A DNA stretch of 64,000 nucleotides, taken from an uncultured Clostridia bacterium (GTDB lineage: Bacteria; Bacillota; Clostridia; TANB77; CAG-508). Made by a program: the position numbers and the translations under genes. The stretch covers positions 499 through 64,498 of the forward strand of contig CANQDX010000003.1 in NCBI GenBank assembly GCA_947594065.1, read 5' to 3'. Each line of letters starts with the position of its first letter. Position 1 is the stretch's first letter. Under the pieces are notes generated by a model. The model was not told where the DNA came from. It was given only the letters and a program-made list of their open reading frames with translations, and did not search any database. Positions 7,208 through 32,326 of this stretch are shown in pieces.

Positions 7208-10200
7208 ATGAATCTTAGGAAATTTATTTTAAAATCTGTAGCAACAACTATGGCCATATCACTGGTCTATGGGAATGTTTCTATTTGTGGAATAGGAATA
7301 AGTAAAGCAATAGCTGAAGATAATATTCCACCAGAAATAGGAATAGAACTAAAAAATGAAGAGTATGTTCCATTCCATAAAGAAAAAGAAGAAGTAACAA
7401 ATAAAGGAATAGCAATTCATAGTAGTTTGGAAATACAACCAAAACAAGAAGAAGATAATTACCTACCAACCGAAAAAGTTGAGCTTGGAGTAAACTTACC
7501 TCAAATAAATGGAAGTTATCCAGAAGTTGCAAATGTAGTGCAAGCATCTACAAAATCTACTACTGGAGAAGAATTAAATACAAATATTACTCAGAATTAT
7601 AATAAAGATTCTGGTTTATTAAGTGTTTCCTATTTAAACTCTTCTAAAGAAGGAAACAAAAATGAAAAAGATAGATTTGAAATAATATATAAGTATTCTG
7701 TTCAAGATAATAATGAAGTTAATTTAACATATAAAGTAAATGCAAAAGTAACTTTCAAAGCAGAAAATGAAAACATTACATCAGAAAACAGTAAAGAAAT
7801 TTCCATAACAGAAAAAGAAAGTAAAGGAAACCTAACAGCATTTAACACACAAGCAAAAGAAGAAATTTATAAAGGATATTTATATTCAAATGTAGAAAAT
7901 CATACAAATTATGAAACAACTTTTAATACAGTATCTACTTATACAGTGTTAAATAGCCAATTAGCAGATACAACAACTTTAGAATTAGAAGAAAATAAAT
8001 TCTTATTAAATAAAGAAGAAAAAGATGCTAATGAAAATATCATATATAAACAAACAAAAATAAGCAAATATGAATTCGATAGAATGTTAGGACAAGAAGG
8101 AAAAATAGAAGTATATAAAGGAGAAGAAGTATTTGCAACTGTACAATATATTGATATAGATAATACAAAAAAATTAGCAGTTATTTACTTAAATGGAGAA
8201 ACAGAAGCATTACAAGATAACGAAGCTTATGCAGTTATAAAATACTCAGAAGATTTTACAAACTTAAATATAAAAATAACAAAACCAAATTCAGAAGGTT
8301 TCTTACATTTCGAAAATGAAAGCGCAATAAAAGCATCAGACAATTATGGAAATAATGTAGAAAAAATAAATGCAATTAGAATAACTAGCAAAATAAATAA
8401 TCAAACATCTAATACAGATATTACATTATCAGAACCAGAAACAAAAATAGCAATTACATCCAGCAATGTAAATCTTTCAACATTACAAGTTAATAAAACA
8501 ACATTAACTGTAAAATTAGACGATACAAATGCAAGTACAAAATTATTTAATAATCCTATCGTTACTATAAAATTACCAGAAGGTTTAACAAGCGGACACT
8601 TATCTAGCCCAAGACTTGTAAATGACAATGGATTAAAAATAAAGAAATCATCAACAAATAATAATGTCATTACAATAGAATTAGAAGGAAAACAATCTGC
8701 TTACGATTTAGAGAATGTAAGTGGTGGCGTAAGCATTGTAATGGATATTGATAACTTAAATTATAGCGATAAATTAGCATCTCATACAGACAAAATAGAA
8801 GTAACCTGTAAACAAGAAAAAGCAGAAACAAAGCAAAGTTTTCCTGTAAATATTGTATCTAAAGCAGGATTATTAATGTTATCTAAATTAAGTAATTTTG
8901 ATAATAGTGGAAATGTAAGCTCTACAGTTGATGACTTAAAAGTAATCAACTTAGAAAACGATGCAGAAACAAAAGAAGCAGTTCATACACTTACTTTAGT
9001 AAACAATTATGATGAAAATTTAACAAATGTAAAAATTATAGGAAGAATAGGCTATAGTAATGATGAATTAAAATCAACATTTGATACAAACTTAAGTAAA
9101 CCATTAGAAGTAGAAAATGCAAAAGTTTATTATTCTACTAATAAAGATGCAAAATTTGAAGATGAAGGATGGACAGAAGAATTTACAAATAATGCAAAAG
9201 CTTTTAAGGTAGAATTAAAAGATAATACAATGGCAAAAGCAGCAGGAATGGAAATAAAAGAAGCTGTACAAATTCCAGAAAAATTAGGTAACAATCAATC
9301 ATCTTACCTAAATTTAAGTATGACTTATCAATATCAAGAAAAAACTGTAGCAGATGAAGTTACAATAGGAATGCAAACACCACAAGATGGTTTAGCAAAT
9401 AATAGTAGTAAAGCAGAAAAAACAATAGTAACGCCAAAAGGTGAAAATTTACCAGTAAGCTTAGAAATAACACCATACATTAAACAAGACTATGTACATT
9501 CTGGACAAATTGTTATTTACAAATTACAAGTAAGAAATAACTCAGAACAAGATTTAGCTAACTTAGTATTAAAAGACATCATTCCAGAAAATGCAGTTTA
9601 TACATACAGAGGATTTGACGAAGAGGAAGAATTAAAAGCAATACAGGATGAAACTAAAGAAAAAGAATGGAAAATAGAAAGCCTAAAAGCAGGAGAAGTA
9701 CAAGAATTTGAAATAGCTCTTTTAATGAAAGAAACTAGCCAAGATTCAACTATTGAAAATAAAATACAATTAAAATATGAAGAACAAACCGTAGAACAAT
9801 CAAGTACTTTAACATTAAAACCTGCTAAAGCAACAGTAGTATTAAGCACTATTAGAGACGAGTCAAATACAGAAGAAGTAGGTTCATATGGTGCTAACGA
9901 AACAATTCAATACAGAGTAAGGGTAAAAAATACTACAGAAGATAACCTAAAAAATGTTAAAGTAACTTATGAAATTCCACAAGAAATAACATATATAACT
10001 GGAGGACTTGCTGAACTAGGAGAATTTGAAAGCAAGATAATTAAAGAAGGCACTATAAATAATAATATTTTTGAATATACAATTGATAATTTAAAATCAA
10101 ATGAAGAAAAAATATTATTTATAGAATGTGAAGTAAAACGTATGGCAAACAAATATAATGTACGAATAAGTGGTATTGCTAATATAGAAGTAGATGGAGA

Positions 10201-11734
10201 AGTATACGAATCAAACGTAAAAATGGATGAAACTTCTCAAGCAGCCTACAATATGTCTGTAGATACTAATATACCAATCGACCAACTTTTAGTATATGAC
10301 GATGAAATAACATATACAATAAGTGTAGTAAATATAGGAAAAGAGTCTGGTAGTATCAACATAAAAAACACTCTTCCAGCAGAAATAGAACCAGAAAAAA
10401 TGGAATATGGAAAACAGGGAGAAGAACCAACTATTATAGAAAAACCTTATAGAGAAATAGAAATTAGTGGAGAATTAGAACCAAACGAAGTAGAAATTAT
10501 TAAAATCTCAGGTACAGTAACTGTTAAAGAAGTAGAACAAACAACTGCATTTGAATTAACGAATGCTACTCAATTAGTTGTTGGAGAAGAAGTAATTTTA
10601 TCTAATGAATTAACACATAGAATGGAAATAGAAGTATTTAACCCAGACGACCCAACTAATCCAACCAATCCAGATAACCCAACTAACCCAGATGACCCAA
10701 GCAATCCAACCAACCCAGAAAATCCAGAAACAAATTCTTATACAATATCTGGAACAGCGTGGGTAGATGAAAACAAAAATGGTAAAAGAGATGAAAGCGA
10801 AAAACTACAAGATAGTGTAGTAGTAAGCTTAGTAAATAAAGAAACAGGAAACTTTGCCTTAGACCAAAATGGAAATAGAATTACTACAGTAACAGATGCA
10901 AACGGAAGATATGCTTTTACAGGTCTTCCACAAGGAAACTATATAGTATTATTCGAATTTGATATAAATACTTTTGCAGTAACTACTTATCAAAAAGAAG
11001 AAGTAGAAAAAAATCTAAATTCAGATGTTATTATGTCTAATGTAACAATAGACGGACAAGAAAAATTTGTGGCAATCACAAATACTATTTCATTAGATGA
11101 TAACGCAAACTATGTAGATATTGGTTTAATAGTAAATGCAACATTCGATTTAAGCTTAGAAAAATTAGTTTCAAAAGTTGCTGTTGTAGATAGCCGTGGA
11201 ACAGAAGAAACAACTTACGACAATAGCAATGTAGCAAAAGTAGACTTAGTTGCAAAATATATGAAAGGTGCTAATGTAATTGTAACTTACAAATTTGTAA
11301 TAAAGAACGAAGGAGAAGTAGCAAGCTTTGCAGATAGTTTAGTAGATAATTTACCAAGCGGATTAGAGTTTAACTCAGAATTAAATCCAGACTGGTATAG
11401 AGGAAATGATGGCAGCATATATACAACAGCATTAGCAGGAAAAACAATACAACCAGGTGAAAGCATTACAACAGAATTAGTATTAACAAAGAAAATGACA
11501 GAAGAAAATACAGGAACATTCCCTAATAGTGCAAAACTAGAAAAAATAAGTAACTTACAAAATATAGCAGAAAGCGAAAAAGCAATGGAAAATAATGAAT
11601 CATCAGCATTATTAATTATATCAATAAAAACAGGTTCAATATGGCTATATACAGGAATTACATTAATTAGCTTAAGCATTTTACTTGCAGGAGCTTACTT
11701 AATTAAGAAAAAAGTTCTGAATAAAGAAATATAA
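7208..11734 (+). CDS. Giant surface protein A1: signal peptide, ~700-aa unassigned region, three DUF11-type modules, (NPx)n linker, SdrD-B/Cna-B-like module, isopeptide-type Ig domain, SIKTG + hydrophobic + KKK tail
   Basis: 1508-aa ORF with AGGAGG at 7193-7198. DUF11-like strings: GQIVIYKLQVRNNSEQDLANLVLKDIIPENAVY; ETIQYRVRVKNTTEDNLKNVKVTYEIPQEITY; DEITYTISVVNIGKESGSINIKNTLPAEIE. SdrD-B-like string: YTISGTAWVDENKNGKRDE...DANGRYAFTGLPQGNYIV. Ig-domain string: SLEKLVSKV...VTYKFVIKNEGEVASFADSLVDNLPSGLEF...FPNSAKLEKISN. Confidence 0.85.
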   Translation: MNLRKFILKSVATTMAISLVYGNVSICGIGISKAIAEDNIPPEIGIELKNEEYVPFHKEKEEVTNKGIAIHSSLEIQPKQEEDNYLPTEKVELGVNLPQINGSYPEVANVVQASTKSTTGEELNTNITQNYNKDSGLLSVSYLNSSKEGNKNEKDRFEIIYKYSVQDNNEVNLTYKVNAKVTFKAENENITSENSKEISITEKESKGNLTAFNTQAKEEIYKGYLYSNVENHTNYETTFNTVSTYTVLNSQLADTTTLELEENKFLLNKEEKDANENIIYKQTKISKYEFDRMLGQEGKIEVYKGEEVFATVQYIDIDNTKKLAVIYLNGETEALQDNEAYAVIKYSEDFTNLNIKITKPNSEGFLHFENESAIKASDNYGNNVEKINAIRITSKINNQTSNTDITLSEPETKIAITSSNVNLSTLQVNKTTLTVKLDDTNASTKLFNNPIVTIKLPEGLTSGHLSSPRLVNDNGLKIKKSSTNNNVITIELEGKQSAYDLENVSGGVSIVMDIDNLNYSDKLASHTDKIEVTCKQEKAETKQSFPVNIVSKAGLLMLSKLSNFDNSGNVSSTVDDLKVINLENDAETKEAVHTLTLVNNYDENLTNVKIIGRIGYSNDELKSTFDTNLSKPLEVENAKVYYSTNKDAKFEDEGWTEEFTNNAKAFKVELKDNTMAKAAGMEIKEAVQIPEKLGNNQSSYLNLSMTYQYQEKTVADEVTIGMQTPQDGLANNSSKAEKTIVTPKGENLPVSLEITPYIKQDYVHSGQIVIYKLQVRNNSEQDLANLVLKDIIPENAVYTYRGFDEEEELKAIQDETKEKEWKIESLKAGEVQEFEIALLMKETSQDSTIENKIQLKYEEQTVEQSSTLTLKPAKATVVLSTIRDESNTEEVGSYGANETIQYRVRVKNTTEDNLKNVKVTYEIPQEITYITGGLAELGEFESKIIKEGTINNNIFEYTIDNLKSNEEKILFIECEVKRMANKYNVRISGIANIEVDGEVYESNVKMDETSQAAYNMSVDTNIPIDQLLVYDDEITYTISVVNIGKESGSINIKNTLPAEIEPEKMEYGKQGEEPTIIEKPYREIEISGELEPNEVEIIKISGTVTVKEVEQTTAFELTNATQLVVGEEVILSNELTHRMEIEVFNPDDPTNPTNPDNPTNPDDPSNPTNPENPETNSYTISGTAWVDENKNGKRDESEKLQDSVVVSLVNKETGNFALDQNGNRITTVTDANGRYAFTGLPQGNYIVLFEFDINTFAVTTYQKEEVEKNLNSDVIMSNVTIDGQEKFVAITNTISLDDNANYVDIGLIVNATFDLSLEKLVSKVAVVDSRGTEETTYDNSNVAKVDLVAKYMKGANVIVTYKFVIKNEGEVASFADSLVDNLPSGLEFNSELNPDWYRGNDGSIYTTALAGKTIQPGESITTELVLTKKMTEENTGTFPNSAKLEKISNLQNIAESEKAMENNESSALLIISIKTGSIWLYTGITLISLSILLAGAYLIKKKVLNKEI
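10641..10732 (+). repeat. In-frame 9-nt (Asn-Pro-x)n linker repeat in A1
   Basis: NPDDPTNPTNPDNPTNPDDPSNPTNPENPE encoded by reiterated aayccaRMY units. Confidence 0.9.
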
Positions 11735-11752: not shown

Positions 11753-14700
11753 ATGAAAAAGAAATTAAAATTCAAGATTGTTATAATGTTAATTGCGATT
11801 TTATTGTTATTAGTTCCCATAATAACAAAAGCTTCAATATATAGTGATAGTGATTTAAAAAATAATAGAAACTATGTGTTCAGTAATGATTCTTATGGCG
11901 ATGAAAGCCATACCAAAAATAATCATTTTGTTGAAATAAAAGTAGGAAATGAAATAGCGGTTTATGTTAACGGTACATCCCCTGAAATGAGTCCTCACGT
12001 AAATACACTTAGCCTTCCTAATGTATATTGTCTTAATAACGGAGTAAACGCAGGTTGGGGTAGTTATAAAATAACTTCTGTTGGAAATAAAGCAAGCCCA
12101 TTACTAGCATATATATTAGCTCAAGGCCCAACGATGGGTCAACTTGAAAGTAATTATAAAAACGATCCATCACAACAGGCTTTGTGGTATTATATATCTA
12201 AAAGTAATTCAAGTGAGGCTTCATTTCTTCGTGGAAGCTTGGGATGCAATTCCGGTTCTCCTTCCAGCAAGGCACTAGAATATTATAATGATGCAGTAGC
12301 TTATGCAAATAAAGTAAATAATTCTAGTGGAATTATTTCTGAAGATGATGTAAGTGCTTCAATAAAAGATAGTACGTTAACAGTAACTGTAAAAGGAAGT
12401 TTTGAAAAATACGATTTATTAGTAAATGGTACAAAAAAAGGTGAATATTATGTTAGCAGTGGTCCACATTCTTATACTGTAAGTGGAGATACAGCAACAG
12501 TAAAAGTCATACCTTATGAGAAAAGATATAACGCAACATATGCTATAATAGAAAGATCTGGTCAACAAAGAATGATGGCAGTAACTAGCACATCATATGG
12601 TGATGAATTGTCAAAAATAGCTTGTGAGAAAACAGTAAGAAAAGAAGAAACCAATGTTTCTTTACAAAAATATATTGCTGCAGTAAATGGTTCAACAAGT
12701 AATATTCCGTTACAACCAAGAACAAACTTACAAGCTATAAGCAGTTCAAAGAATCAAATTTATGCATATAATAAATTTATAAATGAATTTGGCGATTCAA
12801 CACCAAATTCCTACAATGGAACAGGTTATAAAAAAACATCACCTGTTACAATTAAAAAGAATGATATTGTAACATATTATATACATCTTTATAATAATGG
12901 AAACGTATCTGCGAAGGTATCTGTGAATGATACTTTGAAAAAACTTTCTAATAGTAGTAGTACACTTGCTTTTAGTATTGCAGAAACTCCTAAAATAGAA
13001 TTTAGTACAAAAGGTTACAATTCAAATGGAAGTTATTCTGTAAAATCTACCAATTCTCTTACATATAGCAAGAGTGGAGCTTATATTTTGTTTAATGCAA
13101 TTACTTTAGAGGCCAATTCAACAGCACGTATAACTTTAAAAATAAAAATTGAGGAACAAATTGACTCAGGAGATCTAATAGAAAATAATGCGTGGATAAC
13201 AGGCGATGGATATAACAATCCTAATGGATATAGAACAGATGACTACGATTATGTAAAAATGGAACAGCCAGAAGCAACAAAACCAAATGTATCTTTACAA
13301 AAATATATTGCACAAGTAAATAATAAAAATTTAACATCTGCCCAGACATCTGTTACAAATAGATGGAACAGAAAAGATAATTCTGAAAGCATAGGACAAA
13401 TCTTTGATGGTGGTATTTTTAAAGATCCAAGTGGCAATAATGGTGGTTTGTCTTATAATAACGGTTATAAAAGTGAAAACCCTGTAAAAATACAATCTGG
13501 TGACAGTGTAACTTACTACATTTATGTATATAATAATAGCAATAAAATGGTCAAAGTTGATGTAAGTGACCACATATGCTTTGTATCAGATTCAGTCCTT
13601 TCTGAAAACGAATATACAATAACGCAAAGTGCATATGAAAATAGTAGTGATGGATATACATTCACAAGTAATGGTGGCAACAGCAGGATGACTCTTGACT
13701 ATAAAAAAGAAGGTGGCACAATTTACTTTAATACTATTACATTAGATGGTAAAAAAGCTGCTCGAATAACATTAACTGTTAAGTTTAATACCGATATTTC
13801 ATCAAGAGGGGTATTAGAAAATTATGCTGGTATTAGAAGTACAGATCCAACGAATAATACAACATTTAGAACAGGTGACTATGATTATGTAGAAATGGAA
13901 GAACCAGAGCTACCACCACCAGAAACACCAAAAACAAATGTATCTTTACAAAAATATATTGCTCAAGTAAATGGACAAAATTTAACTTCTGAAAATACAG
14001 ATGTTATAAATAGATGGAATGTGCAAGCAACATCACAAAGTGTAAATCAAATTTTTGCATCTAGGACTAAATTTGTGAATCCAGGAGGAAAAGAATATGA
14101 TGGAACTTCTAATACTACTATAGGCTATAAAAAAATAGATCCTGTTTTAATTAAACAAGGTGATATTGTAACTTATTACATCTATGTTTATGCTAATGAT
14201 AATAAAAAAGTTGATAGCATTATAGTAAAAGATCAATTAACTCATACCAATAGCAGTACACGACCATCTTATGCTATTCAGGGAAGTCCTACAATAGAAT
14301 ATAGTGATTTTGGCTATTCATATGGATCAGCCCAAACACTTAATTATACAACAAGTAACGATATTATTACTTTTAGTTCATTTAGCTTAAATTATCAAGT
14401 TGCTCGTATTACATTAAAAGTAAAAATAAATGAACAAATTCCAGCAGGAGATATGATAGAAAATAATGCATACATATATGATACAAATCCAGATAATAAT
14501 ACAACCTATAGAACAAGCGACTCTGATTATGTAGAAATGGAAGAACCAGAGCTACCACCACCAGAAGCACCAAAAACGAATGTATCTTTACAAAAATACA
14601 TTGGACAAGTAAATAATAAAAACTTAACCTTATCTATGTTAGAAATTTATGACAGATGGAACAGAAAAGATGTATCAGGAAGTATAGATAAAATTTATGA

Positions 14701-17700
14701 TACAAATATATTTAAAGCGCCAGATGGCAAAAATATGAATGGCTCTTTTGTAAATGGCTTTAAAAGAGATTATCCTGTAACTATTTCAGTTGGTGATGAA
14801 GTAACCTATTACATTTATGTATATAATAATGACGATGAAACAGCCAAATTAAATGTAAGTGACCAATTAAGTTTCGTGTCTGGTTCTAGTCTTTCTGAAA
14901 GCGAATATACAATAACACAAAGTGTATATGAAACTAGTAGTGATGGACATACATTTAATGGCAATAGCGAAAAACTTGGCTATGCAAGACAAGGTAACAG
15001 TATTTACTTTGATGCTATTACATTAAGTGGCAAAACAGTTGCTCGTATAACATTAAAAGTTAAATTTAATACAGATATTTCATCAAAGGGAATATTAAAA
15101 AATTATGCATATATATCATACACAAACCCAAATAATAAAACTGATTATAGAACATCAGATTCAGACTATATTGAAATGAAACAACCACCAAAAGGAAGCG
15201 TTTCTTTACAAAAATATATAACACAAGTAAATAATCGAAATTTAACATCTGATAATACATCTCTTACAAAAAGATGGAATTTAAGGGATGAATCTACAAG
15301 TATAGGACAAATATTTAATGGAAATATATTTAAAAATGAAGGTGGATTTTCATCTGGTAGTTCATATAATACAGGATATAAAAGCCAAAACCCTGTTATA
15401 ATTAAACAAGGAGATACTGTAACTTACTACATCTATATATATAATGAAAGTAAAGATAGCACTAAAGTTTCTGTAAAAGATACATTAAGTTTTGTATCTA
15501 ATAATTACCTTTCTTCATCATATTATTCAATATCAAGTATTACAATGCAATATGCAAATGATGCCTATAGTTTTGGAAATATCAGTGATATTAGTTACTC
15601 TACGAGTGGAAATACAATAACATTTAATTCATTTAATTTGGGTGGAAAAAAGGCAGCTCGTATAACCTTAAAAGTTAAATTTAGTACAGACATTTCTGCG
15701 TATGGAGTAGTAAGAAATTATGCTTATATAAGTAGCACAAATCCATCTAATACAACAAGCTATAGAACAGAAGATGCTGATTATGTTCAGATGGTAAGTG
15801 CAAATGTTTCTTTACAAAAATATATTGCAGAAGTAAATGGACAAAGCTTAACATCTCATCAATCTTCTATTGGAGATAGATGGAACCTAAGAGATACAGG
15901 AAGTAGTACATCACAAATTTTTGGAAATAGTGGAACACTTAAAAATCCAAATGGCTTATGGTCAGGTAGTTCAAGAACTGGTTACAAGAGTCAAAATCCG
16001 GTTTTAATTAAAAAAGGCGATGTAGTAACATATTATATATATGTATATAACAATAGCCATATTGTAGATTCTAAAGTAACTATAGAAGATAGCTTAAATA
16101 ACAGTAGTTATAGTGTGCAAAGTGCAACAATTGAATTTGGAGATGGATATAATTTTAATGGTACACAAAGCATAAATTATACTAACTCAAATGGTACAAT
16201 GATATTTGATCAATTTACTCTAAATCGTGATACAGCAGCAAGAATTACACTTAAAGTAGCATTTAACACAAGAATTTCTTTAGGAACAACTGTAAAGAAC
16301 TATGCAAAAATTAGAAGTGTTGACCTTGCAAATAGCACAACTTATAGAACAGAAGATGCAGACTATCTTCAAATGGAAGAAGAATACAAAGTAAGCTTGG
16401 AAAAATACATTTCTTCTGTACGTAACGATAAAGGCGTAAATGAATCTATTACTTCAAGAAAAGGTCAAGAAGAATATAAAACAGAAAGAAATGGTAAATT
16501 AGTAGACGAAACGGATAAAGATACTGATTGGACACAACATAACCGTAAAAAGGAACTTTCACCAGTAACAGTAGGAAATGGATATTATATTACATATACA
16601 ATTGAAGTAAGAAATGATGGCGAATGTGATGTATATGTTTCAGAAATTGTAGATACTTTACCAGCCGGAATTTCTCATTATAAAGAGAGTGGATACTCAT
16701 CTAATAAAAACGATTATAAAGCAAGACCAAGTGGTGGTGATATTACAATAACAAGAACCGGTGCAACATTGTTACACCCAGGAGATAGTACATCTGTAAC
16801 ACTTACTGTTATTGTAAGCGAGTCTAACCTTTCTATGAGAGTATTGAAGAATACAGCTAAAATTACAAAACTTACAAATTCAGACGGTACACAATTAGAT
16901 GCAGATGCAAACGATAAAACACGATATAATAACCAAGACTCTGATTATTTCCAAATGAACTTAATGCTTCCAGTTGGAATCGGAGGAATGGTATGGAATG
17001 ATAAAGCATTAAATAAACAACAAGATAGTTATAATGGCTTATATGATGCTAATAGTGAAAGCAAATTAGCTGGAATTAAAGTTTACTTATATAGAGATGG
17101 AGAAAATGGAGTTGTAGCTACTACAACAACAAATTCAAGCGGAAATTATGTATTTACAAATCTTCCAGGACGTAACAGAGTAACAGGAGGATTCTATTCA
17201 TACTATGTAGTATTCGAATATGATGGTATTACTTATACACCAACTAATGATAATAATAATTATAAAAAAGTTGCAACGCCAGGAGATGATCCGTTAACAT
17301 CAAACGCAAGAGAAAAATTAAATAGTACTGATAGTTTCGACGGAATAGTAAATAAAGCAAGAACAACATTTAATAATGGATTTGGTACAATAAATAATTC
17401 TAAGGGAATTAGTTATACAACACAAAACGATGCAGGCTGGACGCCAGAGTCACATCATAACTACAATACAAATATGGCAATTCAAGCTTCAACAGAAAAA
17501 ATAACTATAGCAGACAATGCTACACTAATGGCACAATTACAACACATTAACTTAGGATTAAGAGGTAGAGATATAGTAGACTTACAATTAACATCAGATG
17601 TATACTCTACAAAGGTGACAGTAAATGGCGTAGATGGTGCATATAAATTCAATAGCAACCAAGTTACAGTAAGAAAAGAAGATATAGGTATAGCAGAAGA

Positions 17701-19963
17701 TACAGTAAACTTTGGACACGAAGAATTAATACCTACTGTAGCAAAAGTAGATCAGAACATTAGAAGCTCAGACATTAAAAATACACAATATAATAAGACT
17801 GGCTTAAAAATACAAGTAACATATAAGTTGACTGTTACAAATGCATCTGTAACAATTGCAAAAGCAAATATTATTACAGATTACTTCGATAACAAATATG
17901 ATTTTGTAGAAGCATATTACTTAAATGGAAATAGTCAATCTAAATTAAGTGCAAGTAGTTCAAACAGAAACGGATATAAATCTGTAGCAATCACAATGCC
18001 AAGCAACTGGTTAAATCAAAATGCATTAATGGATGTATACCTAGTTCTTGATTTAAAAGATGCAGAAACAGTTTTACAACAAATAGTAAATAGTGGAGTA
18101 GGAAACTTACCTACATTCAACATTGCAGAAATAACAGAATATTCAACAACAGTAACAAACGGTAGATCCGAATATACAAGAGGCTTAATAGATAAAGACT
18201 CAGCACCAGGAAGTATAGATAGAGAGCAAGCAAGATTAACAACAACAGTAGGACAAAGTACATCTACAGTAAATGGAAACCCAACAACATTAGGTTACTA
18301 TTATCAAAAAGCAAATGAATATCTAAATGATAGAAGCAAAACAGAAATAAATAACCTAAAATGTGAAGATGATACAACTACATCACCAGTTCTATACTTT
18401 ACAGCTTCCGGAAATAGCAGAACAATAAGCGGAACAGTATTTAGAGATAATACAACAACTAACAATACAACAAGAATAAAAACTGGAAATGGAAAATTAG
18501 ATAATGGCGAAGTAGGAGTATATGGTGCAACAGTAGAATTGATAGAACAAACAAGCAACAACCAAGTTGTAAGATATACTACAACATCAGATAAAAATGG
18601 TAAGTTTACATTCTCAGGATTCTTACCAGGTGATTACTTAATTAGATATCAATATGGTGATACAACAAATACTGTATTGTTAAATCAAGCAGGTTCAAAC
18701 ATTAACAGATATTCATATAACGGAGAAGATTATCAAGCAACAAATAATACAGGAAAATATGGGGCAGAGAAACTAAACGACACAGCAAACTTCTGGTATG
18801 TATACAACGAAAATCAAGGTGTATCAACAGCTACAGATAGTATAAGCAGAAGAAATACTGTAAGTGCAAATGTAACAGACTTTACAGATGAACAAATGAC
18901 AGTATTAAACGATATAAGAGATGGCAAAACTGTGGAACAATCTGTAATTCAAGATATTATTAATAAAACAAAGATGGAATCTAACACACCTAAGTTCCAC
19001 ATCACAGTTGAAAAGACAGAAATTACAAGTGGAGGCTTACAAGAAAGAGAAGCATTTAGTCCATATGATGTAACAAATATGAACTTTGGTGTAGCAGAAG
19101 TACCAGTAACAACAATTAATTTAACAAAACAAATAAAAGAATTCTCAATAATTGATTCATCAGGCGAAAATGTAATAGCAAAAGCAAGTAAAAAAGCAAA
19201 TGGTGATTGGGATAGAGAAGGCGATACACTTATATTACCAAATAAGGGATTTGATGTAAGCGTTATAGATGAGAGATTACAAGGTGCAAAATTAACTGTA
19301 ACTTACGAAATTAAAGCAACAATTGCAATGGAGAAAAACTTCAACAACGGAAATGCAGTTGTACCAACAATTACAGGAATAGTAGACTTTATCGATAATG
19401 ACTTATCATATAATCCAGAGCTAGGAAATAACGATACTTATTGGGAAATAACAACATTTGACCAAGTTAAGAGTACCCTTGCACAAGCACAATACAAACA
19501 AGGAAGTATACCACAAGGTACTGTTGACCCAGATGGAAGCAGATATCAATCATTTGTAAAGGCAAAAGCATCTAACCCATTGCTAACACCAATTAATGGA
19601 ACAGCAACGGTAGAAATAACATTAGAAAAAGTATTATCATCAACAGATTCTACATTCGAGGAAATTGTAACAAGTGCAGTAGATGGTTATGAATATAACA
19701 ATACAATAGAGATAACAGGCTTGAACTATAAGAATGTTACAGATGACGGAACAGAGCCACAAAGAGATAGAGTAAGAATACCAACAAGATATATTATTCT
19801 ACCAGGTGTACAACACGATAGTGCTACATCAGACACAATTAATATTCACCCAAAACTAGGAGATAGCAGTATGATGATAACATACTATGTAATTGCAGCA
19901 GCTTCATTAATTGTATTAGCAGGAGGAATATTCATTATCAAAAAGTATGTAATTGCAAAATAA
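11753..19963 (+). CDS. Giant surface adhesin B1: signal peptide, putative thioester (TQxA-type) domain, 6+1 Ig-like repeats, two SdrD-B-like modules, HPKLG + hydrophobic + KK tail
   Basis: 2736-aa ORF starting 18 nt after A1 with a GGAGG RBS. VYCLNNG (Cys93) and DPSQQALWYY (Gln141). Repeats start [NS]VSLQKYI and end YRTxDxDY[VI]xM. SdrD-B-like strings: GGMVWNDKALNKQQD...SSGNYVFTNLPG and RTISGTVFRDN...DKNGKFTFSGFLPGDYLIRY. Confidence 0.85.
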   Translation: MKKKLKFKIVIMLIAILLLLVPIITKASIYSDSDLKNNRNYVFSNDSYGDESHTKNNHFVEIKVGNEIAVYVNGTSPEMSPHVNTLSLPNVYCLNNGVNAGWGSYKITSVGNKASPLLAYILAQGPTMGQLESNYKNDPSQQALWYYISKSNSSEASFLRGSLGCNSGSPSSKALEYYNDAVAYANKVNNSSGIISEDDVSASIKDSTLTVTVKGSFEKYDLLVNGTKKGEYYVSSGPHSYTVSGDTATVKVIPYEKRYNATYAIIERSGQQRMMAVTSTSYGDELSKIACEKTVRKEETNVSLQKYIAAVNGSTSNIPLQPRTNLQAISSSKNQIYAYNKFINEFGDSTPNSYNGTGYKKTSPVTIKKNDIVTYYIHLYNNGNVSAKVSVNDTLKKLSNSSSTLAFSIAETPKIEFSTKGYNSNGSYSVKSTNSLTYSKSGAYILFNAITLEANSTARITLKIKIEEQIDSGDLIENNAWITGDGYNNPNGYRTDDYDYVKMEQPEATKPNVSLQKYIAQVNNKNLTSAQTSVTNRWNRKDNSESIGQIFDGGIFKDPSGNNGGLSYNNGYKSENPVKIQSGDSVTYYIYVYNNSNKMVKVDVSDHICFVSDSVLSENEYTITQSAYENSSDGYTFTSNGGNSRMTLDYKKEGGTIYFNTITLDGKKAARITLTVKFNTDISSRGVLENYAGIRSTDPTNNTTFRTGDYDYVEMEEPELPPPETPKTNVSLQKYIAQVNGQNLTSENTDVINRWNVQATSQSVNQIFASRTKFVNPGGKEYDGTSNTTIGYKKIDPVLIKQGDIVTYYIYVYANDNKKVDSIIVKDQLTHTNSSTRPSYAIQGSPTIEYSDFGYSYGSAQTLNYTTSNDIITFSSFSLNYQVARITLKVKINEQIPAGDMIENNAYIYDTNPDNNTTYRTSDSDYVEMEEPELPPPEAPKTNVSLQKYIGQVNNKNLTLSMLEIYDRWNRKDVSGSIDKIYDTNIFKAPDGKNMNGSFVNGFKRDYPVTISVGDEVTYYIYVYNNDDETAKLNVSDQLSFVSGSSLSESEYTITQSVYETSSDGHTFNGNSEKLGYARQGNSIYFDAITLSGKTVARITLKVKFNTDISSKGILKNYAYISYTNPNNKTDYRTSDSDYIEMKQPPKGSVSLQKYITQVNNRNLTSDNTSLTKRWNLRDESTSIGQIFNGNIFKNEGGFSSGSSYNTGYKSQNPVIIKQGDTVTYYIYIYNESKDSTKVSVKDTLSFVSNNYLSSSYYSISSITMQYANDAYSFGNISDISYSTSGNTITFNSFNLGGKKAARITLKVKFSTDISAYGVVRNYAYISSTNPSNTTSYRTEDADYVQMVSANVSLQKYIAEVNGQSLTSHQSSIGDRWNLRDTGSSTSQIFGNSGTLKNPNGLWSGSSRTGYKSQNPVLIKKGDVVTYYIYVYNNSHIVDSKVTIEDSLNNSSYSVQSATIEFGDGYNFNGTQSINYTNSNGTMIFDQFTLNRDTAARITLKVAFNTRISLGTTVKNYAKIRSVDLANSTTYRTEDADYLQMEEEYKVSLEKYISSVRNDKGVNESITSRKGQEEYKTERNGKLVDETDKDTDWTQHNRKKELSPVTVGNGYYITYTIEVRNDGECDVYVSEIVDTLPAGISHYKESGYSSNKNDYKARPSGGDITITRTGATLLHPGDSTSVTLTVIVSESNLSMRVLKNTAKITKLTNSDGTQLDADANDKTRYNNQDSDYFQMNLMLPVGIGGMVWNDKALNKQQDSYNGLYDANSESKLAGIKVYLYRDGENGVVATTTTNSSGNYVFTNLPGRNRVTGGFYSYYVVFEYDGITYTPTNDNNNYKKVATPGDDPLTSNAREKLNSTDSFDGIVNKARTTFNNGFGTINNSKGISYTTQNDAGWTPESHHNYNTNMAIQASTEKITIADNATLMAQLQHINLGLRGRDIVDLQLTSDVYSTKVTVNGVDGAYKFNSNQVTVRKEDIGIAEDTVNFGHEELIPTVAKVDQNIRSSDIKNTQYNKTGLKIQVTYKLTVTNASVTIAKANIITDYFDNKYDFVEAYYLNGNSQSKLSASSSNRNGYKSVAITMPSNWLNQNALMDVYLVLDLKDAETVLQQIVNSGVGNLPTFNIAEITEYSTTVTNGRSEYTRGLIDKDSAPGSIDREQARLTTTVGQSTSTVNGNPTTLGYYYQKANEYLNDRSKTEINNLKCEDDTTTSPVLYFTASGNSRTISGTVFRDNTTTNNTTRIKTGNGKLDNGEVGVYGATVELIEQTSNNQVVRYTTTSDKNGKFTFSGFLPGDYLIRYQYGDTTNTVLLNQAGSNINRYSYNGEDYQATNNTGKYGAEKLNDTANFWYVYNENQGVSTATDSISRRNTVSANVTDFTDEQMTVLNDIRDGKTVEQSVIQDIINKTKMESNTPKFHITVEKTEITSGGLQEREAFSPYDVTNMNFGVAEVPVTTINLTKQIKEFSIIDSSGENVIAKASKKANGDWDREGDTLILPNKGFDVSVIDERLQGAKLTVTYEIKATIAMEKNFNNGNAVVPTITGIVDFIDNDLSYNPELGNNDTYWEITTFDQVKSTLAQAQYKQGSIPQGTVDPDGSRYQSFVKAKASNPLLTPINGTATVEITLEKVLSSTDSTFEEIVTSAVDGYEYNNTIEITGLNYKNVTDDGTEPQRDRVRIPTRYIILPGVQHDSATSDTINIHPKLGDSSMMITYYVIAAASLIVLAGGIFIIKKYVIAK
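12653..16960 (+). repeat. Tandem array of seven ~190-217-aa Ig-like domain repeats in B1
   Basis: Repeat starts at 12653, 13286, 13937, 14579, 15197, 15803 (VSLQKYI type) and 16388 (KVSLEKYISSV, divergent). Confidence 0.9.
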
Positions 19964-20306: not shown

Positions 20307-23300
20307 ATGAATCTTAAGAAATTTATTTTAAAATCTGTAGCTACAACAATGGCCATATCATTGGTCTATGGAAATGTTTCTATTTGTGGAATAGGAATAA
20401 GTAAAGCAATCGCTGAAGATAATATTCCACCAGAAATAGGAATAGAACTAAAAAATGAAGAGTATGTTCCATTCCATAAAGAAAAAGAAGAGGTAACAAA
20501 TAAAGGAATAGCAGTTCATAGTAGTTTGGAAATACAACCAAGGTATGAAGATACTAATTACTTACCAACCGAGAAGCTAGACCTAGAAGTAAGCTTACCT
20601 CAAATAAATGGAAGTTATCCAGAAGTTGCAAGTGTAGTAGAAGCCGCTACAGAGTCTACTACTGGCAAAGAATTAAATACAAACATTACTCAGAATTATA
20701 ATAAAGATTCTGGGTTATTAAGTGTTTCTTATTCAGATTCTTCTAATGAAGTAAATAAAAATGAAAAAGATAAGTTTGAAATAATATATATATATCCAGC
20801 AGAAGCTTATACAGAAAATGAAGAAGTTGCATTAAAATATACAGTAAATGCAACATTAACATTAAAAGCAGAAAGTGAAAGCATAACTGCAAAAGGAAAT
20901 AAAGAAATTTCTATCATTGCAAAAGAAGATAAGGGAACCTTAACAGAATTTAACACACAATCAAAAGAAGATATTTATAAAGGTTATTTATATTCAAATG
21001 TAGAAAACAATACAAATTATGAAACGACCTTTAATACTGTATCTACTTATACTGTATTAAATAGTAAATTAGCAGATACAGCAAGATTAATGCTAGAAGA
21101 AAATAAACTTGTATTAAATGATAAACAAAAAACAGAATTAAAAACTGATGGAAATATTGTATATAAACAAACAAAAATAAACAAATATGAATTCGATAGA
21201 ATGTTAGGACAAGAAGGAAAAATAGAAATATATAAAGGAGAAGAAGTATTTGCAACTGTACAATATATTGATATAGATAATACTAAAAAATTAGCAGTTA
21301 TTTACTTAAACGGAAAAGTTGATGTAATTGAAAACGATAGCCAATATATTATTGTTAAATACGAAGAAATCTTTACAGACTTAAATATTGAAATTTCAAA
21401 ACCAATTACAGAAGGTTTCTTACATTTTGAAAATGAAAGTTCAATAAAAGCATCAAAAAATTATGGAAGTAGTGTAGAAAAAATAAATGCAATTAGAGTA
21501 TCCAGCAAGGTAAATGATTACACATATGATACAGACATTAGTTTATCAGAACCAGAAACAAAAATGACAGTTACATCTAGCAATGTAAATTTTTCAACAT
21601 TACAAGTTAATAAAACAACATTAACTGTAAAATTAGACGATACAAATGCTAGTGCAAAATTGTTTAACAACCCTATAATTACTATAAAATTACCAGAAGG
21701 ATTAACAAGTGGTAATTTGTCTAGCCCAAGTCTTGTAAACGAAAATGGATTAAAAATAAAGAAATCATCAACAAATAATAATATCATTACAATCGAATTA
21801 GAAGGAAAACAATCCGCTTACGATTTAGAAAATGTAAGTGGTGGCGTAAGCATTGTAATGGATATTGAAAACTTAAATTACAAAGATACTCTTCCAACAC
21901 ATACAGATAAAATAGAAGTAACTTGTAAACAAGGAAAAGCAGAAACAAAACAAAATATTCCTGTAAATATTGTATCTAAAGCAGGATTATTAATGTTGTC
22001 TAAATTAAGCAACTTTGACAATAGCGGTAGCGTAAGTTCTACAATAGAAGATGCAAAACTAATCGAAATTGGAAGTGATGAACCTGCTAAAGAAGCAGTT
22101 CATACACTTGATTTGGTAAATAATTATAACGAAGATTTAACAAACGTAAAAATTATAGGAAAAGTAGGCTATAGCAATGATGAATTAAAATCTACATTTG
22201 ATACAAACTTAAGCAAAGCTCTTTCAATAGAAAATGCAAAAGTTTATTATTCTACTAATAAAGATGCAAAATTTGAAGATGAAAGCTGGTCAGAAGAATT
22301 TACAAGTGATGCAAAAGCTTTCAAAGTAGAATTAGAAGATAATACAATGTCAAAATCATCAGGAATGGAAATAAAAGAAGCTGTACAAATTCCAGAAAAG
22401 TTAGGTAACAATCAATCAACTTATCTAAATTTAAGTATGTCTTATCAATATCAAGAAAAAACTTTAGAAGATGAAGTTACAATTGGAATGCAAACAACAC
22501 AAGATGGTTTAACAAACAATAGTAGTAAAGCAGAAAAAGAAATAATAACATCAGAAGGTGAAAATTTACCAGTAAGCTTAGAAATAACACCATACATTAA
22601 ACAAAACTATGTACATTCTGGACAAATTGTTATTTACAAATTACAAGTAAGAAATAATTCTGATAAAGATTTAACCAACTTAGTATTAAAAGACATCATT
22701 CCAGAAAATGCAATATACACATATAGAGGATTTGACGAAGAGGAAGAATTAAAAGCAATACAAGAAGATGTAAGAGAAAAGGAATGGGAAATAGAAAGTC
22801 TAAAAGCAGGAGAAGTACAAGAATTTGAAATAGCATTATTAATGAAAGAAACAGACGTAGACTCAACTATTGAAAATAAAATACAATTACAATACGAGGG
22901 ACAAACAATAGAGCAATCAAGTAGCTTAGCTTTAAAACCAGCTAAAGCAACAGTAGTATTAAGTACTTCTATAGATGAAAGTTACATATATGACAGTAGT
23001 ATGGTTACATTTGAAAAAGATGAAGTTGTTCAATATAGAGTAAGAGTAAAAAATATTACGAAAGATAGCTTAAAAAATATTAAAGTAACTTATGAAATTC
23101 CAAAAGAAATGGAATATGTAACTGGCGGTCTTGCTGAACTAGGAGAATATAGATATAACATAACAAAACAAGGAGTTTTAAATAACAATACTTTTGAATA
23201 TACAATTGCAAATTTAACACCAGATGAAGAAGTATTACTATTTATAGAATGTAAAGTAAAATCATTGCAAAAAGATTATAATATTCAAATAAGTGGTATT

Positions 23301-24884
23301 GCTAATGCGGAAGTAGAACAAGACATATATGAATCTAATACAAAAACAATTGAAACTTCTCAAGCAGTATACAATATGACTGTAACTCCTAATATACCAA
23401 CTGAACAATTGCTAGCAATGGGAGATAAGATAGTTTATACAATTAATGTAACAAATATTGGAAATAATTTTGGATCTACTGATGTAAAATACAGTATTCC
23501 TGAGGGAATAGAAGTAGAAAAAATTGAATATGGCAAAAAAGGCGAAAAACCATCTATTATAGAAACATCATTAAAAGAAAGAGAAATAAATATTACATTA
23601 GATCCACAAGAAATAGAAGAAATTAAAATTACAGGTACAGTAGTAGGCAAAGAAGTAGAAAAAACTACTATTTTGGAATTAACAAGTAACATTCAATTAA
23701 TTGTAGGAGAAGAAGTAATTTTATCTAATGAATTAACACATAAAATGGCAATAGAAGTAGTTATTCCAGATAATCCAAGCAATCCTGATAATCCAAATAA
23801 TCCAGACAAACCAGATAGACCAAGCAATCCAGATAACCCAAGCAATCCAGGAAATCCAACTAACCCAGAAAACCCAGAAACAAATTCTTATACAATATCT
23901 GGAACAGCGTGGGTAGATGAAAATAAAGATGGTAAAAGAGATGAAGGCGAAAAATTGCAAGATAGTGTAATAGTAAGCTTAATAAACAAAGAAACAGGAA
24001 ACTTTGCTTTAGACCAAAATGGAAATAGAATTACTACAGTAACAGATGCAAACGGAAATTATACATTTGCAAATATTCCAAAAGGAAACTATATAGTATT
24101 ATTTGAATTTGATACTAATACTTATACTGTAACTACTTATCAAAAAGATGGAGTAAAAGAAAATTGTAATTCAGATGCTATTATGTCTAACGTTACAATA
24201 GATGGACAAGAAAAACTAGTTGCAATTACAAATACTATGTCATTAGATGAAAATACAAGTAATATAGACATTGGTCTAATAGTAAATGCAACATTCGATT
24301 TAAGCATAGAAAAATTAGTTTCAAAAGTTGCTGTTGTAGATAAACGTGGAACAGAAGAAACAACTTACGACAATAGCAATGTAGCAAAAGTAGACTTAGT
24401 TGCAAAATATATGAAAGGTGCTAATGTAATTGTAACTTACAAATTTGTAATAAAGAACGAAGGAGAAGTAGCAAGCTTTGCAGATAGTTTAGTAGATAAT
24501 TTACCAAGCGGATTAGAGTTTAACTCAGAATTAAATCCAGACTGGTATAGAGGAAATGATGGCAGCATATATACAACAGCATTAGCAGGAAAAACAATAC
24601 AACCAGGTGAAAGCATTACAACAGAATTAGTATTAACAAAGAAAATGACAGAAGAAAATACAGGAACATTTCCTAATAGTGCAAAACTAGAAAAAATAAG
24701 TAACTTACAAAATATAGTAGAAAACGAAAAAGCAATGGAAAATAATGAATCATCAGCATTGTTAATCATATCAATAAAAACAGGTTCAGTATGGCTATAT
24801 ACAGGAATTACGTTAGTTTGTTTAGGAATATTACTTGTAGGAACTTATTTCATTAAGAAAAAAGTTCTAAATAGAGGAATATAA
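20307..24884 (+). CDS. Giant surface protein A2 (paralog of A1, same architecture)
   Basis: 1525-aa ORF. The first ~70 aa and last ~330 aa are almost identical to A1 and the central part is diverged. Same DUF11-like modules, NPx linker, SdrD-B-like module and SIKTGS tail. Confidence 0.85.
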   Translation: MNLKKFILKSVATTMAISLVYGNVSICGIGISKAIAEDNIPPEIGIELKNEEYVPFHKEKEEVTNKGIAVHSSLEIQPRYEDTNYLPTEKLDLEVSLPQINGSYPEVASVVEAATESTTGKELNTNITQNYNKDSGLLSVSYSDSSNEVNKNEKDKFEIIYIYPAEAYTENEEVALKYTVNATLTLKAESESITAKGNKEISIIAKEDKGTLTEFNTQSKEDIYKGYLYSNVENNTNYETTFNTVSTYTVLNSKLADTARLMLEENKLVLNDKQKTELKTDGNIVYKQTKINKYEFDRMLGQEGKIEIYKGEEVFATVQYIDIDNTKKLAVIYLNGKVDVIENDSQYIIVKYEEIFTDLNIEISKPITEGFLHFENESSIKASKNYGSSVEKINAIRVSSKVNDYTYDTDISLSEPETKMTVTSSNVNFSTLQVNKTTLTVKLDDTNASAKLFNNPIITIKLPEGLTSGNLSSPSLVNENGLKIKKSSTNNNIITIELEGKQSAYDLENVSGGVSIVMDIENLNYKDTLPTHTDKIEVTCKQGKAETKQNIPVNIVSKAGLLMLSKLSNFDNSGSVSSTIEDAKLIEIGSDEPAKEAVHTLDLVNNYNEDLTNVKIIGKVGYSNDELKSTFDTNLSKALSIENAKVYYSTNKDAKFEDESWSEEFTSDAKAFKVELEDNTMSKSSGMEIKEAVQIPEKLGNNQSTYLNLSMSYQYQEKTLEDEVTIGMQTTQDGLTNNSSKAEKEIITSEGENLPVSLEITPYIKQNYVHSGQIVIYKLQVRNNSDKDLTNLVLKDIIPENAIYTYRGFDEEEELKAIQEDVREKEWEIESLKAGEVQEFEIALLMKETDVDSTIENKIQLQYEGQTIEQSSSLALKPAKATVVLSTSIDESYIYDSSMVTFEKDEVVQYRVRVKNITKDSLKNIKVTYEIPKEMEYVTGGLAELGEYRYNITKQGVLNNNTFEYTIANLTPDEEVLLFIECKVKSLQKDYNIQISGIANAEVEQDIYESNTKTIETSQAVYNMTVTPNIPTEQLLAMGDKIVYTINVTNIGNNFGSTDVKYSIPEGIEVEKIEYGKKGEKPSIIETSLKEREINITLDPQEIEEIKITGTVVGKEVEKTTILELTSNIQLIVGEEVILSNELTHKMAIEVVIPDNPSNPDNPNNPDKPDRPSNPDNPSNPGNPTNPENPETNSYTISGTAWVDENKDGKRDEGEKLQDSVIVSLINKETGNFALDQNGNRITTVTDANGNYTFANIPKGNYIVLFEFDTNTYTVTTYQKDGVKENCNSDAIMSNVTIDGQEKLVAITNTMSLDENTSNIDIGLIVNATFDLSIEKLVSKVAVVDKRGTEETTYDNSNVAKVDLVAKYMKGANVIVTYKFVIKNEGEVASFADSLVDNLPSGLEFNSELNPDWYRGNDGSIYTTALAGKTIQPGESITTELVLTKKMTEENTGTFPNSAKLEKISNLQNIVENEKAMENNESSALLIISIKTGSVWLYTGITLVCLGILLVGTYFIKKKVLNRGI
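23766..23880 (+). repeat. (Asn-Pro-x)n linker repeat in A2, longer than in A1
   Basis: PDNPSNPDNPNNPDKPDRPSNPDNPSNPGNPTNPENPE. Confidence 0.9.
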
Positions 24885-31525: not shown

Positions 31526-32326
31526 ATGAATCAGATATTAGTATGCGAAAAAATATATGTAACACCAGAATTAAAAAGAAAAAAGAAACTATATAAATTC
31601 AACTTTATAGCTTCTATTTTTCTTGTTATTGTTTTATTTGGTTATTATGTATATGCTGAATATGATAGAAATTCATCTGACAAGTCTAAAGAAATTCTTT
31701 CACAGCTAGAGGTAGTAGAAACTCCTGTAGATGTTGGACAAATAGATTCTACAGTAAAATTACAAGATGATGTACTAGTGGTAGTGCTAGATGATACACA
31801 AGAAGATACTTCAGAATCAACAGAAGTAAATTTGGAAGAATTAATAGAAGCAAACAAAAGAGCAGAATCTAAAATAGATACAAAATATTATCAAACCAAA
31901 AGTGGAGAAAGTTATACAACTGTAGCAGTAATAGAAATACCAAAAATAAATGTTACTTATCCTGTTATTTATAGTAAAAATACAAGTGCTGAAACAACAG
32001 AGGAATTATTAAAAATTTCAGTAGTAAAATATTGGGGACCTGAACCAAATGAGCAAGGTAATTTCTGTATTGTAGGGCATAATTACCATAATAAAAAATT
32101 TTTCAGTAAAGCATCTACCTTGAAAAAGGGAGACAGTATTTATTTAACAGGTACTAACAACGAAACTTTAGAGTATAAGGTGTATGATAATTATGTTGTA
32201 GAGCCTAATAATTTAAAATGTACCAGTCAATTAACAAATGGTCAAACAGAACTTACTTTAATCACTTGCACAATGACAGGAAAGCAAAGAACAATTATTA
32301 AAGCAAGAGCGGTCAGTGCAAACTAA
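31526..32326 (+). CDS. Sortase-family transpeptidase (N-terminal TM anchor, acidic spacer, TLITC active site)
   Basis: FCIVGHNY (His185), TELTLITCT (Cys248), GKQRTIIKA (Arg255). No C-terminal TM segment and no obvious DP[WFY] lid. Confidence 0.85.
   Translation: MNQILVCEKIYVTPELKRKKKLYKFNFIASIFLVIVLFGYYVYAEYDRNSSDKSKEILSQLEVVETPVDVGQIDSTVKLQDDVLVVVLDDTQEDTSESTEVNLEELIEANKRAESKIDTKYYQTKSGESYTTVAVIEIPKINVTYPVIYSKNTSAETTEELLKISVVKYWGPEPNEQGNFCIVGHNYHNKKFFSKASTLKKGDSIYLTGTNNETLEYKVYDNYVVEPNNLKCTSQLTNGQTELTLITCTMTGKQRTIIKARAVSAN

Follow-up and report, generated by a model that had tools for sequence, protein, structure and literature searches.

Among the domains of bacterial adhesins, thioester domains (TEDs) are, to our knowledge, the only ones that attach to a target by a covalent bond, and functional work on them has been done almost entirely on pathogens. 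The present analysis concerns a candidate TED at the tip of B1, a surface protein of an uncultured gut Clostridia bacterium. The B1 gene is located in a 64,000-nucleotide stretch of DNA (assembly GCA_947594065.1, contig CANQDX010000003.1, positions 499 to 64,498), which is referred to as the window and whose numbering is used for all coordinates of this locus. An initial annotation, made from the sequence alone, had placed the N-terminal domain of B1 among the TEDs of Gram-positive adhesins and had proposed a thioester between Cys93 and Gln141.

Three motifs define the TEDs: [YFL]CΦζ, which carries the thioester Cys, a weak ΦQζΦΦ, which carries the thioester Gln, and a helical TQxxΦW, formerly written TQxA(I/V)W (PMC4450167; PMC6194298). 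The first two are located on β-strands, whereas the Gln and Trp of TQxxΦW form hydrogen bonds with the Cys backbone and are not required for bond formation; the helical motif is common in TEDs and is not universal (PMC4450167; PMC6194298). Its Thr is neither essential nor universal, and mutation of its Gln in Cpa leaves bond formation intact (PMC4450167). In the TED fold, the bond is buried by a β-barrel together with a three-helix bundle; class II, which is defined by an inserted β-sandwich, also adds a slipknot hairpin (PMC6194298), and its A–B loop is variable and extended (Miller 2018, PMC6194298). The spacing from the Cys to the bond-forming Gln amounts to 129–153 residues in class I and 171–204 residues in class II (PMC4450167; PMC6194298). 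The reported pairs are Cys94–Gln247 in PnTIE and Cys138–Gln267 in CpTIE of class I (PMC4450167; PMC6194298), and Cys296–Gln467 in SaTIE (spacing 171) and Cys88–Gln292 in EfmTIE86 (spacing 204) of class II (PMC6194298). The modelled pair of TIEpLS20, also of class II, is Cys68–Gln256 with a spacing of 188 (PMC8092201). In SfbI, FbaB, and Cpa, a Lys of the target attacks the thioester and becomes covalently linked to the Gln of the TED through an isopeptide bond (PMC4450167). TIEpLS20, the product of gene 34 of pLS20, is a class II TED adhesin needed for conjugation in liquid (Gago-Cordoba et al. 2021, PMC8092201).

Comparison of B1 with described thioester domains

Residues 28–297 of B1 were read as a divergent class II-type TED, in which Cys93 and Gln272 are predicted to form the thioester and Gln141 and Trp145 belong to the supporting helix motif. 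The probability of this reading was put at about 0.72. The features of B1 that bear on it are as follows.

11753–19963, + strand: B1 gene, surface protein of 2736 amino acids with a TED, a repeat stalk, and a C-terminal sorting-like signal (open reading frame list, translation, and Pfam matches to DUF11, DUF7927, and SdrD_B)
11753–11833, + strand: predicted Sec signal peptide, residues 1–27 (MKKKLKFKIVIMLIAILLLLVPIITKA), hydrophobic and positively charged, as judged by eye
11834–12001, + strand: variable N-terminal segment of the TED, residues 28–83, poorly conserved; model residues 1–56 have a predicted local distance difference test (pLDDT) score <50
12002–12643, + strand: class II-type TED core, residues about 84–297 (confident region of the AlphaFold2 model, Foldseek, and Pfam TED)
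12029–12031, + strand: Cys93 (TGT), predicted thioester Cys of the [YFL]CΦζ motif (VYCLN, within NVYCLNNG)
12170–12187, + strand: S140-Q141-Q142-A-L-W145, TQxxΦW helix motif (α2), with Q141 encoded by CAA at 12173–12175
12350–12553, + strand: β-sandwich insert, residues about 200–267, the class II-defining feature (DSSP strands and a weak Big_15 match)
12566–12568, + strand: Gln272 (CAA), predicted thioester-forming Gln of the ΦQζΦΦ motif (GQQRMMAV)

The best fold matches of the B1 domain were the class II TEDs of BaTIE (6FWV), EfmTIE86 (6FWY), and SaTIE (6FX6) described by Miller et al. 2018, of which only 6fwy and 6fwv were significant. As in these class II proteins, the TED of B1 was N-terminal and followed a signal peptide, the [YFL]CΦζ motif had its Cys on a strand, and the TQxxΦW motif was located on a helix. 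In addition, a β-sandwich followed the helical bundle, the predicted bond-forming Gln was found about 170–200 residues past the Cys on a returning hairpin, and the domain was carried by a stalk of Ig-like domains, which are cross-linked in the known proteins and predicted to be so in B1. The domain differed from the known class II TEDs in its low identity (11–13% in the Foldseek alignments), in the Ser that replaces Thr, in the extra helices of its model, and in template modelling scores (TM-scores) of only about 0.3. B1 was also about five times as long as the 522-residue BaTIE chain. Its stalk contained CLIPPER/DUF11-type (CnaA-like) repeats, whereas known class II thioester-isopeptide-ester (TIE) proteins contain CnaB domains, and its sorting motif was HPKLG, whereas theirs is LPXTG.

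TIEpLS20 was the closest parallel at the level of single residues. In a colinear profile alignment, Cys93 and Gln272 of B1 corresponded to Cys68 and Gln256 of TIEpLS20, and the QRMM segment of B1 corresponded to QRLM. However, TIEpLS20 is plasmid-borne, belongs to a conjugation operon, and lacks a clear TQxxΦW motif, whereas the B1 gene was chromosomal, was located between ksgA and housekeeping genes, and had an A-type protein and a sortase as partners.

Cpe0147 (CpTIE) of Clostridium perfringens (5A0G), which the initial annotation had named as a known example of the same architecture, resembled B1 as a TIE-type adhesin from the Clostridia in which the TED is N-terminal and is followed by a stalk of repeats. 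The parallel held for this arrangement and did not extend to the TED class, since CpTIE has a class I TED (129-residue spacing) with no β-sandwich insert, and its stalk is composed of ester-bond domains. The TEDs of SfbI, FbaB, and Cpa from Streptococcus pyogenes provided the mechanistic template for B1. They are class I domains with fibrinogen as the known target, whereas B1 was class II-like and was derived from a metagenome-assembled genome (MAG) of a gut commensal-type Clostridia.

Motifs of the tip domain

The motif positions given in the initial annotation were all confirmed on translation. These comprised Cys93, the LLAYILAQGP segment between the Cys93 motif and the S140-Q141 motif, Gln141, the Ser in place of the usual Thr of the helix motif, and the 48-residue spacing from Cys93 to Gln141. 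The spacing from Cys93 to Gln272 was 179 residues. A [YFL]C-hydrophobic motif and a [ST]QxxΦW motif occurred together in 0.0245% (2.45e-4) of 200,000 shuffles of B1 residues 28–300. Strands A and B and a 'specificity loop' are expected in the variable segment at residues 28–83.

Conservation in the homolog family

An exhaustive hidden Markov model (HMM) search with a B1/B2 profile, where B2 is the paralog of B1 in the window, recovered 17 representatives, 9 of them at E<=1e-10. The family alignment (alignment A2) contained 15 of these sequences, which were 23–31% identical to B1. The thioester Cys was kept in all 13 sequences that covered it. In the helix motif, Gln and Trp were invariant (15/15). 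The downstream Gln, with R, K, P, or D as the next residue and hydrophobic residues after it, was present in each of the eight covering sequences. The segment read QQRMMAV in B1 and YQPVVVI in B2, and its other variants were QQRVLVV, SQRLIVI, KQRIIAV, RQRMIVV, HQKFLVA, and NQKLLVI. The N-terminal segment of the TED was weakly conserved in the same alignment.

Other searches returned few relatives. In a word-indexed protein search, the B1 N-terminus as the query matched a 98%-identical fragment alone, and the family alignment as the query matched only two proteins. The TED of TIEpLS20 had zero matches in this word-indexed database, itself included. A related-locus search with B1 alone detected no relative among species-representative genomes, and an exact-sequence look-up of B1 returned no record.

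One family representative, P0011, was chimeric. It contained an N-terminal TED fragment, and its residues 157–218 matched ribosomal protein L4 (E 5.9e-13); rplD of the window is located at 40985–41608. The chimera was probably caused by a misassembly or a miscalled open reading frame in the source contig.

Profile matches and predicted fold

The Pfam TED profile (PF08341) matched residues 91–187 of B1 over profile positions 2–102 of 102, with E=0.011 and 16.6–16.9 bits. It matched eight of the 15 family members, and the matches with listed coordinates (B1 and seven homologs) all began at profile position 2 on [YF]C. A single member, P0005, scored above the Pfam threshold (25.2 bits against 22).

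An AlphaFold2 model built with the 15-sequence alignment had a pLDDT of 75.7 and a predicted TM-score (pTM) of 0.69, and it was confident over model residues 57–270. A model built from B1 and B2 only (pLDDT 51) was unusable. When the model was compared with the PDB by Foldseek, the matches at E<=1e-3 were class II TEDs only, namely EfmTIE86 6fwy (E 1.2e-4, 255 columns) and chains A and B of BaTIE 6fwv. These matches spanned 250–255 columns with a probability of 0.99. SaTIE-TED 6fx6 was found at rank 13, the remaining matches were generic Ig or FnIII domains aligned on the sandwich, and no class I TED was found among the 50 Foldseek matches listed. The fold match expected for a TED was thus obtained, and it pointed to class II.

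The secondary structure of the model fitted the class II topology as described in PMC6194298. Cys93 was located on a β-strand (model residues 64–66), and SQQALW was located within a helix (model residues 112–123). The helical bundle was followed by a seven-strand sandwich (DSSP strands, model residues 173–240). A long β-hairpin (model residues 220–240 and 247–259) had Gln272 at its tip, where a strand starts.

Partner of Cys93

In order to place the bond-forming Gln, a reference alignment of 11 sequences of the pLS20 TIE class II TED family was built from plasmid records. Its profile matched SaTIE-TED 6fx6 (E=3.7e-4), with FC aligned on the Cys motif of SaTIE and the helix aligned on ATQMLIW. 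When the B1 family was compared with this reference by hhalign, the alignment was colinear over 246–264 columns. Cys93 fell opposite the Cys of TIEpLS20, SQQALW opposite the equivalent helix, and Gln272-Arg273 opposite the Gln-Arg of YQRLM, in which the Gln is Gln256 in the numbering of PMC8092201. The statistics were modest, with a score of 31.2 and P=0.002. All controls scored lower: the reversed profile gave 14.1, and 150 block-shuffles gave a mean of 20.9, a standard deviation of 2.8, and a maximum of 28.1. The comparison of the family with the single TIEpLS20 sequence was uninformative, with a probability of 1.5%.

These results, together with the in-register Pfam matches and the class II fold matches, bear out the earlier assignment of the N-terminal domain as a relative of the TEDs. 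The proposed thioester between Cys93 and Gln141 was not supported, since the bond of known TEDs is not formed by the Gln of TQxxΦW (PMC4450167, PMC6194298) and the conserved candidate in B1 is Gln272. The short Cys93–Gln141 spacing, which the initial annotation had listed as a caveat, is what normally separates the helix motif (α2) from the Cys. The 179 residues from Cys93 to Gln272 are within the 171–204 residues of class II, and therefore the caveat was removed.

Evidence against the assignment and alternative explanations

Several observations weigh against the assignment of a class II-type TED with a Cys93–Gln272 bond. The B1 score was below the Pfam TED gathering cut-off of 22, and the Pfam scan of B2 at E<=1 gave no TED match. 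Neither B1 nor its first 330 residues alone matched an NCBIfam family named for thioester or TQXA at E<=1. Of the HMM checks proposed in the initial annotation, the one with Pfam gave a sub-threshold match to B1, with one register for the listed matches of its relatives, and the one with NCBIfam gave none; the latter is a matter of model sensitivity and not of structure. HMM searches of PDB sequences with B1 and with the family profiles (alignments A1, A2, and A3) recovered no TED. The profile of alignment A2 did match polyubiquitin chains, with whole-sequence E-values down to 8.6e-14, but these values were sums of nine matches of about 5 bits to a 'QRL' segment and were rejected as an artefact of repeat summation. 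The TED sequence of TIEpLS20 alone, a bona fide TED, likewise had no match to a PDB TED, so this null result says little either way.

The other points concern geometry, alignment, and sorting. The Foldseek TM-scores were low (0.27–0.30, with a root-mean-square deviation of about 9 Å), and the first 56 model residues, which are expected to complete the β-barrel, were not confidently modelled. The low scores were probably caused by these unmodelled variable residues and by the uncertain orientation of the two lobes, so that in this model the fold assignment appears good and the geometry does not. The hhalign probability was only 13.6%, and the proximity of Cys93 and Gln272 is presumed only by homology to TIEpLS20 and BaTIE. 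The neighbouring Gln271 might conceivably be the partner of Cys93; Gln272 was preferred because it occupies the conserved column. At the other end of the protein, the HPKLG motif has Leu where sortase substrates have Thr. Sortases normally cleave after Thr.

Among the alternatives, a TED fold that lacks the thioester, or has it in some paralogs only, and that acts by non-covalent binding or as a structural cap domain is unlikely. In its favour, the sequence is a divergent one that scores under the HMM threshold, the helix motif has Ser in place of Thr, and the bond in B1 is a prediction. However, the Cys and the downstream Gln, the only universally required residues of TEDs, were kept at 23–31% identity, and their retention while almost all else changed argues for selection on the bond. 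The Thr that the Ser replaces is neither essential nor universal in TEDs (PMC4450167).

It is very improbable that the domain is not a TED at all, and that an unrelated helical-plus-Ig domain acquired short TED-like motifs by chance. The missing PDB sequence match, the low TM-scores, and the low hhalign probability would agree with such an origin. Against it stand the rarity of the motif pair in shuffled sequences (2.45e-4), the eight family members matched by Pfam TED with all listed matches in one register, the sole significant fold matches to 6fwy and 6fwv over ~250 columns, and the hhalign controls, which were always below the real score. Moreover, it is known that TEDs diverge too far to be recovered by plain sequence search, as the TED of TIEpLS20 illustrates.

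A Cys93–Gln141 thioester in an unusually compact TED can hardly be maintained: both residues are conserved and the motif Gln is directly beside the thioester Cys in known TED structures, but the TQxxΦW Gln is never the bond-former in characterised TEDs and the Cpa mutant still forms its bond (PMC4450167; PMC6194298), the separately conserved Gln272 aligns with the bond-forming Gln of TIEpLS20, and 48 residues is a usual spacing, since the Cys as well as the helix motif falls within the 102 positions of the Pfam TED model.

Proposed mechanism

If B1 carries a class II-type TED, it would be secreted by this uncultured gut Clostridia bacterium and act as a fibrillar adhesin. The internal thioester would join the side chains of Cys93, on the β-strand of VYCLN, and Gln272, in GQQRMMAV, with the Gln272 hairpin returning from the inserted β-sandwich into the N-terminal lobe. 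Gln141 and Trp145 would pack against Cys93 and form hydrogen bonds with its backbone. The reaction would follow the example of SfbI, FbaB, and Cpa: the thioester would be attacked by a nucleophile of the target, in the typical case the amine of a Lys, so that Gln272 becomes joined to the target by an intermolecular isopeptide bond and the thiol of Cys93 is set free. The seven CLIPPER/DUF11-type repeats and the SdrD_B-type domains, both probably stabilised by isopeptide bonds, would hold the TED off the cell. The protein would end in a sortase-like sorting signal, with a dedicated sortase encoded in the adjoining region.

Stalk and C-terminal signal

The remaining features of B1 are located downstream of the TED.

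12659–16957, + strand: stalk of seven ~200-residue repeats, residues 303–1735 (Pfam and NCBIfam matches, repeat scan)
19847–19963, + strand: C-terminal sorting-like signal, composed of HPKLG (19847–19861), a hydrophobic segment, and a KKYVIAK tail

The stalk was matched by the DUF11/CLIPPER (54.4 bits), DUF7927 (43.8 bits), and SdrD_B (46.0 bits) families of Pfam and by B_ant_repeat of NCBIfam (67.2 bits), and SdrD_B-type domains followed the seven repeats. In a motif scan, each repeat started with SLQKYI, ended with DxDYxxM, and contained a recurring K...D...N pattern. The xxNxAxI motif was present in all seven repeats and a VxVxDxL-type motif in five. The spacing of these motifs fits the Lys/Asp/Asn isopeptide triad of CnaA-like CLIPPER domains, as predicted from the sequence. 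For all of the families matched by the stalk, intramolecular isopeptide bonds have been demonstrated or predicted (PMC12617251), and the B1 repeats were regarded as putative isopeptide domains.

The canonical LPXTG was not found at the B1 C-terminus; HPKLG, a transmembrane segment, and a KK tail were found instead. The srtB_target model of NCBIfam matched this region weakly, with 13.5 bits against a cut-off of 18.15, and the homologs P0003, P0005, and P0007 have HPPTG at the place of HPKLG. The TIE-like architecture described in the initial annotation was thus found in the signal peptide, the TED, and the repeat stalk, whereas the canonical C-terminal wall anchor was not; B1 may be anchored through HPKLG.

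Adhesin locus and genomic context

The adhesin locus occupied 7208–32326 of the window with the gene order A1-B1-A2-B2-sortase-SH3 protein, and A1-B1-A2-B2 is a tandem duplication of an A–B pair.

7208–11734, + strand: A1, partner surface protein of 1508 amino acids (CLIPPER/DUF11, SdrD_B), with a C-terminal SIKTGS, a transmembrane segment, and KKK near 11600–11734
20307–24884, + strand: A2, paralog of A1, 78% identical
24905–31381, + strand: B2, paralog of B1 with its own TED, 2158 amino acids
25157–25159, + strand: Cys85 of B2
25322–25339, + strand: SQIVLW motif of B2
25802–25804, + strand: Gln300 of B2, in YQPVVVI
31526–32326, + strand: sortase-family gene downstream of the adhesin genes (Pfam Sortase, E=2e-25)

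Proteins A1 and A2 both ended with SIKTGS, a transmembrane segment, and KKK, and no TED was detected in the A proteins by profile scans. The TEDs of B1 and B2 were about 30% identical, with NTYCVGHG and PSQIVLW kept in B2, whereas the stalks were about 68% identical; the tips diverged on conserved shafts. The sorting motif of B2 was likewise HPKLG (31265–31279). The product of the sortase gene was matched by general sortase models and by none of the class-specific NCBIfam models, the best being class C, which gave 62.5 bits where the cut-off is 160. It may represent an undescribed sortase class with unusual specificity.

The protein encoded after the sortase (32420–34213) had three SH3_3 domains and a weak match to SagB-type glucosaminidase, and it was found beside the cassette in a related metagenomic contig (L093) as well. 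It may serve the adhesin system as a partner that binds or remodels the cell wall.

In L093 (3261–15598), a single A–B pair was followed by the sortase and the SH3 protein, with the same flanks, ksgA and the SH3 gene. Within 8001–8800 of this contig, the B homolog was frameshifted inside the β-sandwich of the TED and was split into P0017 (241 residues) and an open reading frame of 1946 residues. The frameshift was seen in both the ENA and Logan assemblies, and the frame downstream of it encoded the conserved Gln motif (KKTGQDLIASY). It could represent a pseudogene, a homopolymer sequencing error, or phase variation.

The window was chromosomal, with ribosomal-protein genes at 40.3–49.3 kb. Its PlsX was 90% identical to that of a Clostridia MAG, and its neighbours included Candidatus Merdicola and Clostridium sp. 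CAG:452.

A broader proposal, which as a whole was considered quite unlikely, is that B1, B2, and about 15 relatives would constitute a distinct TED subclass confined to uncultured gut Clostridia and displayed by the conserved cassette of A, B, and sortase. The unclassified sortase would recognise HPKLG or HPPTG in the B proteins and SIKTGS in the A proteins, and might link the two kinds of protein into a heteromeric fibre whose tip captures covalently. The two tips of the duplicated cassette, only 30% identical, would then be aimed at different gut targets.

Significance

The TED of B1 belongs to an already known kind of domain, of which it is a divergent member. The points of note are its extreme divergence from current models, its occurrence in a gut commensal, a cassette that is duplicated and whose tips have diverged, the non-canonical sorting signals, and the unclassified sortase. 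The Gln of the TQxA motif is commonly confused with the bond-forming Gln, a confusion that would misdirect mutagenesis, and the present reading provides Cys93–Gln272 as a testable residue pair. The Pfam and NCBIfam models that were scanned miss the TED on B1 and B2, and the family sequences could seed a better HMM for TEDs in gut metagenomes. For the organisms themselves, the reading would mean that uncultured gut Clostridia display, on giant surface proteins, a class II TED family that is very divergent and is present in this locus as two diverged copies on similar stalks.

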